DNA of 64,000 nucleotides, from the NCBI GenBank assembly GCA_965652295.1, contig CBFGTS010000006.1, forward strand, positions 160,001 through 224,000, read 5' to 3'. Made by a program: the position numbers. The stretch is from an uncultured Haloferula sp. (GTDB taxonomy: Bacteria; Verrucomicrobiota; Verrucomicrobiia; Verrucomicrobiales; Akkermansiaceae). Within the stretch, counting starts at the first letter, position 1. Each line of letters begins with the position of its first letter. Below are positions 15,001 through 21,000 of the stretch, in pieces.

Positions 15001-18000
15001 GGGCTGATGGAGCGCGAGCCCGGCCTCGAACATTTCCATGCCACGCATCTGACCATCACTTCCGGCCGACGGCATCGGCTGGCGGCCTCGATCGATGGCG
15101 AAATTCTCGACATCTCCCTGCCTCTGCGGCTCGATCTGAGGCCCAAGGCGCTGCGGGTGCTCCGTCCGCGCGCCGAGAACGACTGAAACTCCGCTTTGGC
15201 TTTCTTCATCCAGATTTCCGACCTGCACTTTGGCGCCGAAGTGCCCGCCGCCGTCGATGCACTGCTTGAGACCATCGCCCACACCCACCCGGACGCCGTC
15301 CTTTGCTGTGGCGACTTCACGATGCGCGCGCGACGCTTCGAGTGGCGGGCCGCCCGGGATTTCCTGGAAAAGATCGCCGTCCCCGTGGTCTCGATCCCCG
15401 GCAACCACGACATCCCCGCCGCCAACCAGCCGCTCGACCGCCTGCTCCATCCGTTCCGCCGCTACAAGCGCTTCATATCCGACGACATGGAGCCGCACGC
15501 CAGCTTCGGTGGCCTGGAGGTTTCCGGCATCAACACCGCCCGCCCCTGGGGTTCGTGGCCGACCTTCGATTGGTCGCACGGCGCGGTGAGCGTGGCCCAA
15601 TGCGCGGCGCTGCCCTTCAAGTTCACCTCGCACGCCGGCATGCGCGCCGTGATGATCCACCACCCGCTGCGCGGCGAGGCTGGCCAGACCCGGAAGCTGT
15701 TGCGAAAAAACGGGCTGCTGCTCGCCGCCATGGCCTCCGCGAAGGTCGATCTACTACTGGCAGGCCATTTCCACCGCTCCTATATCGACGTGATGCCGCT
15801 GCCGGTCGGCGAGGGCAACATCGTCCTTTCCCATGTCTCCACCGCCTGCTCCCGCCGGACGAAAGGCGAACCCATGGGTTTCCACGGCATCGAGACCGGC
15901 GAGAATTCGGTGACAATCACGCAGTACTGCTTCAACGACGGGAAGTTCGAGATCGCCTCCACTCATCTCTTCCATCGCGAGGAGAATGTTTGGTCGAAGC
16001 AGGGTGCCTGAAGCGTATCGACTCCCGCCCGCAAAGAATCAGTTAGGACACCCGGAGCGGCGAAACGCGTTCGCCGGAACCCGCCAGAGAAGACCGCCCT
16101 CAGGGACCACTCCCGGCGGACATGTTCCGCCGTTCCTTTCCCCCGCGACCGTCCTCGCACGTCCGCAACCGCTTCTCCTATAACCCACAGCTTCAGACTG
16201 GCGCTCTTTCCACCAAAATCAGGTTCCGACCGACGAACAAAAGGAAGTATTTCATGGCTCCGCTCGAAGAGCCGGAAGCGGGGTCTCAATCTGGCATGAA
16301 GATCAGATCCAAAAGCTCGTCCAGCAAAAGAACCGGTAATTCTTTCTGTAAATTTGCAGAATCGGTTGCATCCCATATTATTCCCGCTACCGTGGGTTCG
16401 AATCCCGCCAGATCCGAAATGAGCACCAGTATTCGCAGAGCCACGCTTCCTCCATCCACCGCCGGAAGCGGTTGGCGCAAGGGTGACCATCCACCAACGA
16501 AGGGCCTCATTCAGACTCTGCGAGAGGATTACGGAGTAACTCAGAACCTGATGGTCCGCCTGTCGGGCTACTCCCCTCGCTCGATCGCAAACTGGGCAAG
16601 TGGGACCAAGGCCACCAAGCCGGCGACAACAAAGTTCATGGAACTGACGAGGCTCTTCAGCGCTCTCGCCGAAATGGCTCAGAGCCCGAAAGACGTGATC
16701 CAGTGGCTTCAGGAGCCCAACGAGGCCTTTGATGGCTCAACACCTTTGCAAGTCATTGAACGGGGCGAGTCGGACCGTATCTGGCGGATGATCTACTTCC
16801 TGCGCTCCGGCGAGCCTCTCTGACGATTTCTGTCTCAAGGATCCATTCCGGCTCGTGTTTCTATGAGAAGGAAGCTCAGCCGATCTGACGCAGGGGCGGG
16901 AAAAGACGGCTGCCGGGCTCGTGGAACGGGGGCGTCCCACCTCCAAAGTGAGACTCACCCGATCGCCGCCTCCCACTCGGCTTCCTTGAAGCCGGTGAGG
17001 CCGATGCCGTTCCCCACGACGAACGGGCGCTTCACGAGGTTGCCGTGACGGGAAAGCAGGTCGAAGGCCTCGGCCTCGCTCATGGCGGCCAGGCGGTCCT
17101 TCAAATTCAGCTCGCGGTAATCACCTCCAGCGGTGTTGAAGAGGCGCTTCAGGTCTCCCATGGCCTCGCGCACTTGCTTCAGCTCCGCCACCGTCGGCGG
17201 GGTTTCGCGAATGGCAATCGGCTCGTAGGTGAGGCCTCGGGCGTCGAGCCATTTCAGGGCTTTCCGGCAGGTATCGCAGCCGCGGTAGACGTACACTTTC
17301 ATGAAGACGGGCGTTCTCTTTCCAGGCTCACGCCGACCCACTCGGTTTGGGGCAGGATGAATTTCCGGATCCGCACCTTCACCGCGACGGCACCGAAGCT
17401 GTCCAGCACCAGGTCCGCGATTTCATCGGCCAGGGTTTCCACCAGCTTGCGCTCTCCTTCCGCGGCGAGCTTCTCCACGGCCAGCGAGACGGCGTGGTAG
17501 TCGATCGTCCGGCCGACGTCTTCGGCCATGTCGGCGAAATCCGTCGCCGGGCGCATGTCGAGGTCGATCTTCAACATCTGCGAACCGGCCCGTTCTTCAT
17601 CGGGCACGCCGATGCGGGTGAAGATCTCCAACCCGCGGACATGGATCCATGCGGCATTCATGATTCGGGGCCGCCGAGGACTTCCTCGATCAGGCGGCGG
17701 GTCGGTTGGTTAAGGTCCAGCTCCAGGGCTTCCTCCGGCGTCAGCCAGCGGAATTCCTCGGCTTCGTCGTTGAGCACCACCTCGCCGGAAATACGGCGGG
17801 CGACGTAGTTGAGCAGCAGGAAGTGCTCGGGCCGTTCGAATTCGTCGGAGTCGATGCAGTCCTGCACCATCACGAAGACCGGGGCGGCGACATCCAGGCC
17901 GGTTTCCTCGCGGATCTCGCGCACCAGGGCGGCGGCGGCGCTTTCGCCGCGCTCGATCTTCCCGCCGGGGATCCCCCAGCGATGGCCCCACTTGTGGGTT

Positions 18001-21000
18001 TTCACCATCAGCACGCGACCTTCCTCGTCCTCGATCAGGGCACCGACGGTGGCAACCGGCCGCTGTTTCTCGCCCGGGCGCTCCATCAGGCGGCGCAGTC
18101 CGTCGAGGTCCTGCACGGTGAGGTGCGGCCTCGCCAGCGCCAGCGCGCCGGCGTGGGTGTAACCGGTGAGCACCGCCACGGAAGTGAGCTGCGCGTGGTG
18201 CGCGGTCTCCACATCGTGGGTCATGTCACCGACGAAGGCAGTCTGGGAAGGAAGCAGGGCGTGGCGCTCGATGATTTCCAGAATGACCTCGCGTTTGTCG
18301 AGGACGCCGGAGTAGGTGGCTTCGAAATACGGGCCGAGGCCGAATTCCTCAAGCTGCCCGTGGAAGGCGTCGGAGTCCATGCTGGTCAGGACGAAGCAGC
18401 GGATGCCGCGCCGCCGGCACCATTCGAGTTTTTCCCGGGCATGGGGCAGCACGGTGACTTTTTCCAGTGATCCGGAAAAGGCCCTGCGGAAATGCACCTC
18501 GAGCTTGGCGAGCGGCACGGCGGGCAGCATTTCCTCGTAGAACTCGCGGTAGGGCAGCCGGAACCGTTGGCGGAAGGCCTCGCGATCGAGCGGCGGCAGA
18601 CCGTAGACGGCCAGCACCCGGTTGGTGGCATCGAGCACCGGCGGGAGGTCGTCCACCAGCGTGCCGGACCAGTCGAAGATGATATTTTGAAACATCAGCC
18701 GAGAGAGAAACGGATCGACTTCACTTTTCCCTCGCCGAGGGAGGCGCGCAGGTTGGTGAGCAGCCTGCCTTTCATCTGCTCAAGCTGGAAGCGCATCGCG
18801 GGCTGGAGCACCTTGAGGGTGAGGCAGCCGTTTTTCAGCGACTCCGGAGATGCATGGCGGGCGACGAGATCGCCGGCGATTTCGCGCCAGAGCTCGCGGA
18901 GGCGTTCCTCGTCGATGCCCTCGGCGGCACCGACCTGGTTCAGGATCGCCGCCAGGAATTCATCCGGCCGATGGACTCCGGCGTCCGGGTGTTTCGGCTC
19001 CTCGCCGCCCCGCCACTCGGCGAGGATGGCGCGACGGAGCCGGGACATCCGGTCACCCCTGGCCATATCACGCGTCGCCGTCGTCGCCGATGGCTTCGAC
19101 CGGGCAGCCCTCCATGGCCTCGCGGCATTGGGATTCCTCCTCGGCGTTCTCCGGTTGCTTGTAAACGTACGAGTAGCCTTCGTCGTCGGAGCGGGTGAAA
19201 TTGTTCGGCGCGGTCTCGCGGCAGAGGTCACAGTCGATGCACTGGGAATCGACGTAGAACTTGCCTCCGATGTTTTCCTCGTTTTTGTCTTCGCGGTCAG
19301 CCATGGTGTGTGGGTCCGGGTTCCTTGGCCTGTGAATCGCGCCAGCGGGCCCGGCGTGCAAACCTTTTCCGTGCTAGCGGGGCGTTCGTTTCCACTGGCC
19401 AAGAGAGCGGCCGATTCCTATCACCGGCTCGTCCCATGCCCGACGAGCCCGACCAACCGTCCAAACCCTCCCGCTCGCGGCCGCGTCTGAACGACCTGGC
19501 CGGCGAAACTTTGGAAGACGAGCTTTGGAACCTTGATGACGACGATTCGCAGCCGGCGGACGTCGAGGTGCAACCGCGCAATCCCAAAGCCAGGCCCGCG
19601 CCGCGAGCGGTGAGCCAGCCGGAGGAGGTCGAGGACAAGCCGGGGGAGGGAGCCGAAGCGCCCGCCGGGGAGCCCCCTGCTGAGCAGCCGGAGAAGCACG
19701 AGGCGCTCGCCGCGAAGAAGCCGAAACCGAGCCGCCCCCTCCACGCATCCGAGGACGAACTGGACCTCCCGGAAGAGGAGGCCGATGACACGATTTCCGC
19801 CAAGCCGACCGAGCCCGAAACCGCTCCGGAAACCGGACCCGACGTGGAGGAGTTCGAGAAAAAGCGCCCCGCAGCCGCGGCCGCCACGCCTCCGGTCGCA
19901 GGAGCGAACTCGCAGAAAATCGAGAAGATCGGGCTGATCTCGCTCGCCGTCGTGGTGGTCGGGATCGCCATCTGGGCCACCGCCGGGCTTTTCTCCAGCG
20001 TCAGCACCACCGAGCTGGGCGAGGATTTTCCCGACCTCCCGGCGGAAGGGAAATACGCGACGATCGACGAAGTGGACACCTACTGGCGCAAACCGGTGCG
20101 TGAGGGGGAAGATGCCGATGCCGCCACGGCCGGCGTGCTTTACATCCCGATCGTGTCGGTGACGCTCGACGAGGGCGGGTCCGGCGTGCTGCGCATCCTT
20201 TTCCGCGACGAAAACGGGGAGTTCGTGGGCGATGCGATTTCCCGCCGTTTCGCGAATGGCAGCTTCACCGAAAGCGGTTCGGAAACGGCCGACTTCGCCG
20301 CAACGGACGGCTTTCGCGAGATTTCCGAGTTCAATGGCTACCGCGTCGGCACCGAGCGGTGGACGGCCGAGATCTACGAAGGCCCCTCGGCCGATGCCTC
20401 CGGCAGCGAATTCAAGCAGCTCGTGACCACGCCGCTGTTCCCGAAGACCCGGTGATCGCCCGATTTTCCCGCTCATGAATGACAGCAACTCCGCCGTTCC
20501 GCCGCTCGTGCCCCGTGAAGGCTGGCACGTCATGCACCTCTTCTACCATATCGATCACTCACAGTGGTCGCTGCTCGACGACGAAGACCGCCGCCACGCC
20601 AAGACCCGCCTGACCGAGTTGGTCCAGGAAATCCGCAGCACACCGGACACCCATCTGCTCATCTTCGCCGTGGCCACGCCGAAGGCCGACCTCGGCTTCA
20701 TGCTGCTAACGCCCGATCTCCAGACGGCGAACGCCTTCGAAAAGCGGCTCACTCTTTCGCTCGGGCCCGACATCCTCACCCCGGCCTACTCCTATCTCTC
20801 CCAAACCGAGCGCTCGGAATACACCACCACTTCCGAGCAGTACGCCGAGGAAACCCTCAAGGGCGAGAAGGGCCTCGCGCCGGACTCCCCGGAATTCGCC
20901 GCGGCGATGAAGGAATTCGAGGAGCGGATGGACCACTACCTGAAGCACCGCCTCTATCCCGTCCTGCCCGATTGGCCGGCGATCTGTTTTTACCCGATGT

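Follow-up and report, generated by a model that had tools for sequence, protein, structure and literature searches.

Introduction

On the way to folate, dihydroneopterin triphosphate gives up pyrophosphate and then its last phosphate before dihydroneopterin aldolase (FolB) can act. For the first step several enzymes are described: NudB of Escherichia coli, FolQ (YlgG) of Lactococcus lactis and AtNUDT1 are all Nudix dihydroneopterin-triphosphate pyrophosphatases. FolQ, according to excerpts of a 2007 paper (PMC1971073), was first found through its linkage to folate genes. The same excerpts ascribe the last phosphate before FolB to a non-specific phosphatase, as do excerpts of papers from 2014 and 2019; a 2023 paper, likewise in excerpt, calls this dephosphorylation specific and names no gene.

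Which enzyme might take the last phosphate? HADs fused to vitamin genes have turned out to be pathway phosphatases (PMC4921024, Table 4). The thiamin-linked HAD-IA/IB and TenA-HAD proteins are fused to or clustered with a vitamin gene and serve a step formerly ascribed to unspecific phosphatases. The riboflavin-linked HADs are further phosphatases that fill gaps of this kind.

Here we describe a HAD-Nudix fusion gene in an uncultured Haloferula sp. (order Verrucomicrobiales) that resembles the vitamin-linked HADs in its setting; it differs in its link to the folate pathway, in the residues of its first motif and in being paired with a Nudix domain. Because it lies beside the sole folB of the genome, and its relatives lie beside or are fused to folate genes in several bacterial groups, we regard it as a strong candidate for the step usually ascribed to unspecific phosphatases. 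Within the literature searched, whose coverage left out one key supplement, we found no assignment of this HAD/Nudix family to pterin dephosphorylation.

The HAD-Nudix gene and its neighbours

The window, a 64,000-nucleotide stretch of one contig, carries the gene in a run on the reverse strand:

19068..19304, (-): ferredoxin (Fer4_13), first gene of the run, upstream of dciA
18695..19066, (-): dciA (DUF721), a conserved neighbour of the HAD gene, fused nowhere
17658..18695, (-): HAD-Nudix fusion gene, ATG start, 345 aa
18081..18695, (-): HAD domain, predicted C1 helical cap; D8 nucleophile, S10 where Asp is usual, invariant D16; further key residues T104/S105, K134, D157, H160, D161, G178-Y179
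17670..18071, (-): Nudix domain, complete Nudix box G245-L267; subfamily-specific invariant residues T233, K235, W236, H291, N309, E311, W317, N329, P331
17299..17661, (-): folB, dihydroneopterin aldolase (PF02152, E 6.1e-23, 81.9 bits)
16955..17302, (-): ArsC/Spx-family gene downstream of folB, overlapping the folB stop

The first-pass annotation had read this as a HAD and a Nudix hydrolase joined in one gene that abuts folB, and so it is. A single open reading frame of 345 aa holds both Pfam domains, HAD_2 at residues 5-175 (E 3.9e-24) and NUDIX at 214-338 (E 6.2e-24), in one frame with no stop in between. Its stop overlaps the folB start by 4 nt (ATGA), and its start overlaps the dciA stop by 1 nt (TGATG). 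The folB product has a FolB domain with the Tyr, Glu and Lys that have roles in the FolB active site. folB is present in single copy, and the genome also has folE2, folK and folP. The ArsC/Spx-family gene was not found beside the other orthologues examined, a promoter and terminator scan gave no signal above shuffles, and atlas look-ups returned generic names only.

The HAD domain

The model of the HAD domain (pLDDT 95.5) predicts a Rossmann-like core with a helical C1 cap, and its best Foldseek matches are C1 HADs (TM-score up to 0.88). The nucleophile of motif I and motifs II-IV are in place: D8; T104/S105; K134; and G156-D157 with D161 (GDxxxD). D8, K134, G156, D157 and D161 are invariant in 32 aligned sequences.

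The canonical DxD is absent. Motif I reads DWSGT, with Ser at +2 in 176/176 orthologous loci; an Asp at +8 (D16) is equally constant (176/176). Public databases name these proteins phosphoglycolate phosphatase (Gph)-like, yet the equivalog scores fall far below their cut-offs (TIGR01449, 54.1 vs 180; NF009695, 59.8 vs 225). Gph-type C1 HADs (PDB 2ah5, 3sd7, 3mc1, 2nyv) have the fold and motifs II-IV in common with this domain. In the aligned Gph-like structures, however, Asp stands at +2 in four of five and Ser at +8 in three, the reverse of what is seen here.

Can such a domain be active? Two active HADs likewise lack the general acid. LHPP, unlike the domain here a member of the NagD clade, has PPi and P-N bonds as its targets; Ser at +2 is the mark of this pyrophosphatase/phosphoramidase (PMC11277029, section 3.2). 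The phosphatase domain of the drimenol synthase AsDMS has Gly at +2 rather than Ser and a terpene diphosphate as substrate, and excerpts of PMC12232559 indicate that lack of the second Asp need not stop a C1 HAD from freeing an alcohol of its phosphates. Since the canonical general-acid Asp is missing, more than one phosphate comes into question as the one that the HAD domain would remove.

The Nudix domain

The Nudix box, GX5EX7REUXEEXGU, is complete; PF00293 scores 85 bits and the fold matches agree, the closest being NTP pyrophosphohydrolases. NudB, FolQ and AtNUDT1 share fold and box with this domain, which differs in being fused behind a HAD. The first-pass annotation had cast the Nudix half as FolQ. 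As stated, this is not supported: the NudB equivalog model NF006961 gives 31.3 bits against a cut-off of 103, NudB ranks 15th among the solved sequences matched, and 65 of the 89 order genomes with the HAD lack the domain. On sequence comparison with NudB, the domain belongs to a subfamily separate from NudB and is no NudB orthologue.

Within the order the Nudix domain occurs in 24 of 121 genomes, in each fused to the HAD, and a tree of 180 rows requires no fewer than 16 changes in its presence (locus L019, with a stop inside the HAD, and 80 metagenome loci were left out). We found no stand-alone Nudix of this subfamily in the 121 order genomes or in 251 phylum genomes. Nor did the best 120 short and best 120 long database matches show a folate-domain partner; many of the short ones look like contig-end pieces.

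Linkage to folB

How constant is the link to folB? Locus counts refer to 257 loci and order counts to 121 genomes, with matches taken at E<=1e-30; earlier tallies (a match in 31/41 genomes; folB adjacent in 18/20 loci and Nudix fused in 10/20) came from a different sample. The HAD is matched in 89/121 genomes, and folB is adjacent to it or fused with it in 64 of these 89. The first-pass annotation had the HAD immediately preceding folB throughout the order. This is too strong, because the HAD lies apart from folB in 24 of the 28 f4-family genomes and in G104. In all, HAD and folB are separated in 25 of the 89, and the neighbours scanned there include no folate gene. Conversely, folB is present in every HAD-bearing genome tested, yet it occurs in 117/121 anyway, so this co-occurrence says little.

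folB is adjacent or fused in 209/257 loci and fused in 48, Akkermansia muciniphila among them, and the fused state requires at least nine changes on the tree. Among the best 150 cluster representatives (50% identity), 23 contain a FolB domain and six of these are HAD-Nudix-FolB. A loose check of the FolB active-site motif was positive in 43/43 fused and 94/98 separate copies. FolB is, admittedly, fusion-prone (PMC4921024, supplement). Moreover, fusion is found in 45/101 loci where the Nudix is gone and in 3/108 where it is kept, so some fusions may be by-products of deletion.

dciA, already noted as a conserved neighbour, is indeed adjacent in 106/257 loci. It is fused in none of them, however, and folB stays with the HAD without dciA in 108 loci, whereas dciA stays without folB in five. 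On these counts dciA was dismissed as the real partner.

At 33-38% identity, distant homologues are part of two kinds of cluster, folE-PTPS-HAD/Nudix and HAD/Nudix-folB-folM-like. Two (L272, L315) follow folE and a PTPS gene; at the first, labelled Deltaproteobacteria, folB is divergent and metF stands two genes on. Four others (L258, L260, L262, L263) lie between a Vut_1 gene and folB with a FolM-like reductase, and a member of the L258 cluster is labelled Immundisolibacteraceae. With the repeated HAD-FolB and HAD-Nudix-FolB fusions, the lack of any dciA fusion and these distant pterin clusters, the folate link emerges stronger than first proposed.

Genomes without the HAD tell the other side. 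In 28/121 genomes folB is present and the HAD is not. Twenty of the 28 were examined: none has a replacement phosphatase beside folB, and in nine dciA runs straight into folB. A PTPS-III bypass was considered for the HAD-less genomes and rejected: 30 of 33 PTPS matches were read and all were QueD-type, so no bypass explains the loss. Three g2 genomes without the HAD-FolB gene keep folK (3/3), folP (2/3) and folE2 (2/3); we do not count them as support for co-loss with the pathway, and they may reflect assembly gaps. The proposal that this HAD is the dedicated enzyme of the step is not supported as worded: the pathway does not need it, and it lacks the general-acid Asp.

Discussion

The HAD-Nudix protein quite probably acts on pterin phosphates of some kind. 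As to how, we lean towards a two-step removal, in which the Nudix domain takes pyrophosphate off dihydroneopterin triphosphate and the HAD takes off the last phosphate for FolB. The substrate would be 7,8-dihydroneopterin triphosphate, made here by FolE2, and the product dihydroneopterin. The Nudix step would be a FolQ-like job done by a separate subfamily; the HAD would form an aspartyl-phosphate at D8, and the invariant D16, or else some other conserved residue, would take the place of the missing general acid. The HAD is FolB's constant companion. Genomes that have lost the Nudix would rely on another Nudix or a similar enzyme for the first step, and those that have lost the HAD on unspecific phosphatases for the second. 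On the strength of genomic context, the HAD is a putative dihydroneopterin monophosphate phosphatase.

Could the pair instead be a general nucleotide house-cleaning system (NTP to NMP to nucleoside), kept near folB by inheritance of an old mixed operon, with the fusions as by-products of Nudix deletion? Conserved unrelated genes do share the run (ferredoxin, dciA, an ECF sigma factor), and the HAD is cleanly lost from many folB-bearing genomes. Relatives with a single domain and the same motifs also turn up outside folate settings (L276, L287); L276 lies between genes whose translations read as ribonucleotide-reductase-like, Nudix and guanylate-kinase-like. The best Nudix folds are NudI and MutT1-type enzymes. 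Mycobacterial MutT1 also has two phosphohydrolase domains per chain, but acts on oxidised nucleotides and has no folate link; its second domain is of phosphatase type and not a HAD. Against this, the folB link outlasts the loss of dciA and ferredoxin (108 loci), recurs with other pterin genes (folE, PTPS, FolM-like) in other lineages, and includes six triple fusions that retain the Nudix. We consider house-cleaning unlikely.

The patchiness of the Nudix raises another question: is it needed at all? The HAD alone might take phosphates one by one from dihydroneopterin tri-, di- and monophosphate, and the Nudix would be no more than a dispensable accelerator of the first step. Its absence from most HAD-bearing order genomes, its failure ever to stand alone there and its many changes on the tree would fit. 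So would Ser at +2, which goes with anhydride cleavage in LHPP, and the DXG HAD of drimenol synthase, which by excerpts of PMC12232559 removes two phosphates stepwise. But the Nudix is highly conserved, and fused even in the most distant homologues, which suggests a job of its own; other Nudix genes are at hand (seven in this genome); and the cap has few invariant basic residues for a triphosphate. We think this rather unlikely. The same low probability attaches to its fullest form, a HAD subfamily that, with its general acid shifted from +2 to the hinge at +8, strips all three phosphates by itself, so that the A. muciniphila HAD-FolB would turn the triphosphate into hydroxymethyldihydropterin in one polypeptide.

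The invariant Ser at +2 could also mean that the Nudix has the FolQ role. The HAD would then be an inorganic pyrophosphatase of the LHPP kind, or else a binding domain with hardly any activity, for clearing PPi, and the monophosphate would be left to unspecific enzymes. A Bacteroides thetaiotaomicron HAD pyrophosphatase is among the top fold matches. Yet FolB, for which PPi is neither product nor substrate, keeps company and fuses with the HAD rather than the Nudix, and the invariance of all the remaining catalytic motifs argues against a dead enzyme; this reading is quite improbable. Least probable is a pterin side branch or damage control outside the main folate flux (monapterin made with the help of FolB and FolM, or disposal of excess or oxidised pterin phosphates where the queuosine route branches off). 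In its favour, the gene is dispensable, and QueD-type PTPS, a FolM-like reductase and a gene of the queuosine-precursor-transporter family are found near distant homologues. But folB is the only pterin neighbour in this phylum, and with substrates that would be identical or nearly so, this reading can hardly be told apart from two-step removal.

The family offers named, clonable candidates for the last dephosphorylation before FolB, including the HAD-FolB fusion of the gut bacterium A. muciniphila, labelled phosphoglycolate phosphatase in databases, and a further Nudix subfamily as candidate for the preceding step. With its Ser and Asp exchanged, motif I would also allow a test of whether a catalytic residue has moved within the HAD fold. 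Were the HAD to act alone, HAD-FolB fusions would be complete triphosphate-to-hydroxymethylpterin enzymes, and that of A. muciniphila would fill both missing dephosphorylation steps of folate synthesis.

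The HAD-Nudix gene overlaps folB

The protein considered here is encoded in a densely packed run of the window, in the order ferredoxin, dciA, HAD-Nudix, folB and an ArsC/Spx-family gene.

17658-18695, minus strand: HAD-Nudix ORF, 345 residues, both domains in a single frame
Residues 5-175 of its product: HAD domain (Pfam HAD_2)
Residues 214-338 of its product: Nudix domain
16122-16823, plus strand, convergent to the folB run: protein with a C-terminal Xre/MbcA/ParS antitoxin-type domain
20475-21308, plus strand: chlorite-dismutase-family protein, possibly a coproheme decarboxylase by family link

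The HAD-Nudix gene shares 1 nt with dciA at its start and 4 nt with folB at its stop; the first-pass annotation was thus right to describe a joined HAD and Nudix abutting folB. The nearest named relatives come from Haloferula and Luteolibacter and bear only the labels HAD-like, NUDIX or phosphoglycolate phosphatase. The window genome has one folB, together with folE2, folK, folP, one QueD-type PTPS and seven Nudix matches; folE had no match there. A further Nudix gene is located some 2.7 kb away from folK (contig C8 of genome G000; loci L131 and L255).

Distribution within the order

The HAD orthologue occurs at E<=1e-30 in 89 of the 121 Verrucomicrobiales genomes, and the locus was read in all 89. 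The first-pass annotation placed it directly upstream of folB across the order. This holds for 64 of the 89 loci: folB is the next gene in 35 and is fused to the HAD in 29 (26 HAD-FolB and 3 HAD-Nudix-FolB). It fails for the other 25, which have no folB beside the HAD: G104 and, in family f4, 24 of 28 genomes. The Nudix subfamily occurs in 24 of the 121 genomes, in every case as the fusion. One HAD-Nudix match (L019, genome G067) carries a TAA within its HAD part, from a broken gene or an assembly error. Four f4 genomes have a second HAD gene directly after the DWSGT HAD (L046, L047, L053, L061).

folB itself is present in 117 of the 121 genomes, 28 of which lack the HAD orthologue. Twenty of these 28 folB loci were read: dciA runs directly into folB in nine, an ECF sigma factor gene often lies 3' of folB, and none of the 20 has another phosphatase beside folB. 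Many genomes of families f3, f4 and f5 (L092-L129) have the sigma factor gene after folB, a conserved link with no evident folate meaning, and in G102 a formate-tetrahydrofolate ligase gene lies directly upstream of folB (L123:757-2517). Because the loci with and without the HAD read that way, the ancestral run of the order looks like a mixed one, ferredoxin-dciA-HAD-Nudix-folB-sigma factor, from which the Nudix part and at times the whole HAD gene were later lost.

Could a PTPS that bypasses FolB account for these losses? In HAD-less genomes the PTPS genes, of which 30 of 33 matches were read, are QueD-type by motif class, so such a bypass does not account for the losses. With 28 genomes that keep folB without the HAD, the HAD gene is therefore dispensable for folate synthesis in the order. 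Several QueD-type PTPS proteins (L345-L353, the window genome's excepted) have Gln at the position of the first metal-site His.

folB is the likely partner of the HAD

We compared folB and dciA as partners in 257 loci: 89 from the order, 80 from named genome records, 8 from other orders or classes and 80 from metagenome contigs, sets in which species may overlap and related loci are not independent. folB adjoins the HAD or is fused to it in 209, of which 48 are fusions. dciA adjoins the HAD in 106 and ferredoxin-dciA in 102; neither is ever fused. folB follows the HAD without dciA in 108 loci. The reverse, dciA before the HAD with no folB within 1.4 kb, occurs in five, of which three are near contig ends and one has folB a little further on.

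In a quick IQ-TREE analysis of 180 HAD domains, from which L019 and the metagenome loci were excluded, the fused state changed at least 9 times and Nudix presence at least 16 times, counts that do not distinguish gain from loss. In genus g2, each of the 23 genomes that bear the HAD has it fused to FolB; the L028 protein of Akkermansia muciniphila (ACD05284.1) goes under the label phosphoglycolate phosphatase or HAD-like. The 150 best representatives at 50% identity include 17 HAD-FolB proteins (2 with partial FolB) and 6 HAD-Nudix-FolB proteins; another protein, P0048, has an Smr domain fused N-terminal to HAD-Nudix. Caution is needed here: the HAD is fused to FolB in 45 of 101 Nudix-less loci versus 3 of 108 that have the Nudix, so HAD-FolB fusions may arise simply when the Nudix domain is deleted. 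More than seven kinds of FolB fusion are known, according to part of the supplement of PMC4921024.

Distant homologues lie among pterin genes

Beyond the order, the phylum sample (251 genomes) holds clear orthologues in nine genomes, of which eight loci were read.

G124 (another class), G257, G277: HAD-Nudix and folB
G125, G341: HAD and folB
Three f14 genomes: HAD alone, folB elsewhere in the genome

In G124 a second HAD gene directly follows folB (L243). Scanning metagenomes with distant members as seeds yielded 80 loci; folB is next or fused in 67, and 5 are too short to judge. The most distant homologues, 33-38% identical to the window protein, are without dciA or ferredoxin and have other pterin genes.

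L272: folB (divergent), folE, PTPS, HAD-Nudix, Band 7 gene, metF
L315: folE (end), PTPS, HAD-Nudix
L258, L260, L262, L263: Vut_1 transporter, HAD-Nudix, folB, short-chain reductase

The L272 protein (HBF12355.1) carries the source label Deltaproteobacteria, and a member of the L258 cluster (MDF1819252.1) the label Immundisolibacteraceae. Two of the four short-chain reductases were scanned; their best model was dihydropteridine/dihydrofolate reductase, with a score below the cut-off. The compound linking FolE, PTPS and FolB is dihydroneopterin triphosphate, as pathway passages of PMC1971073 and PMC5041015 have it. Because they are independent of a single inherited operon, these clusters are the strongest evidence for a pterin link of HAD-Nudix.

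We favour, on balance, a reading in which the Nudix domain would release PPi from dihydroneopterin triphosphate and the HAD domain would remove the last phosphate, the resulting dihydroneopterin passing to FolB; the chemistry is predicted throughout. A purely folate role for the wider family is argued against by single-domain relatives with the same motifs, read from translations, that lie beside non-folate genes (L287) and beside nucleotide-metabolism-like genes (L276), and by the HADs that stand alone in f4 and f14, near which 33 neighbouring frames scanned in 21 loci include no folate gene. The protein could be a nucleotide house-cleaning pair that inherited its position near folB. L276 fits this idea and the distant pterin clusters do not; we hold it to be unlikely.

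The Nudix domain

The Nudix box is complete, and conservation is tight in every lineage seen, with 25 invariant columns among 27 sequences. Against the NudB model the domain scores 31 bits (cut-off 103); its closest folds are NudI-type NTP pyrophosphohydrolases. Nudix specificity is determined outside the box, by the passages concerned in PMC5526541, and triphosphate activity is described in separate Nudix branches in part of PMC5389931 and in a further family by Kachi et al. 2024, as cited in a passage of PMC13257207. The domain may have a FolQ-like function, as a candidate; we do not assign it to FolQ.

Motifs of the HAD domain

The structure model of the HAD domain (pLDDT 95.5) matches C1-cap HADs. 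D8, K134, G156-D157, H160, D161 and G178-Y179 are invariant in the alignment. In motif I, DWSGT, Ser replaces the general-acid Asp at +2 from the nucleophile D8 in 176/176 orthologous loci and in 136 of 138 scorable representatives; the residue at +8 is Asp in 176/176 and 134 of 138. In solved relatives the pattern is reversed, with Asp at +2 and, mostly, Ser at +8. Of the six other HADs in the window genome whose motif is readable, five carry Asp at +2 and none at +8. In beta-phosphoglucomutase the +8 residue, T16, is a hinge whose rearrangement goes with engagement of the general acid D10 (passages of PMC6713671 and PMC9171722). D16 of our HAD could thus be a substitute acid-base residue. 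A sister HAD group (L251-L254), with no folate neighbours seen, has Asn at +2 and also Asp at +8; the changed motif is therefore broader than the folate-linked clade.

Which bond would such a HAD cleave? Two precedents, each from part of its source, point opposite ways: LHPP, with Ser at +2, cleaves PPi and P-N bonds (PMC11277029, section 3.2), and the C1 HAD of drimenol synthase, with Gly at +2, removes two phosphates stepwise and frees the alcohol (PMC12232559). By analogy, then, the motif does not exclude the proposed HAD step and leaves bond specificity unfixed. Drimenol synthase lends some colour to a HAD that strips the phosphates stepwise on its own, as do the Nudix-less loci; the tight conservation of the Nudix domain speaks for a job of its own, and we give this alternative rather little weight. 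A HAD acting as pyrophosphatase or inert partner is improbable: LHPP favours the former, the invariant motif residues tell against the latter. A role in a pterin side branch, which the PTPS neighbours of L272 and L315 might suggest and the prevalence of folB beside the HAD does not, is the least probable of all.

A candidate for folate dephosphorylation

The last dephosphorylation is described as unspecific in passages of PMC1971073, PMC4161248 and PMC6451014; a passage of PMC10339729 calls the step specific and names no gene. Our full-text search, in which subscription literature is thinly covered, found no paper that gives this step to a HAD or reports these fusions, which Table S8 of PMC4921024 (FolB fusions) possibly tabulates; the portions consulted of PMC5270213 and PMC5615194 contain nothing on a HAD/FolB fusion. 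The first-pass annotation had proposed the HAD as the dedicated dihydroneopterin-phosphate phosphatase, with the Nudix half acting as FolQ. We conclude that HAD-Nudix is a real and well-supported candidate for folate dephosphorylation, as a predicted function, and that it would belong to a known kind: HADs that fill gaps in vitamin pathways.
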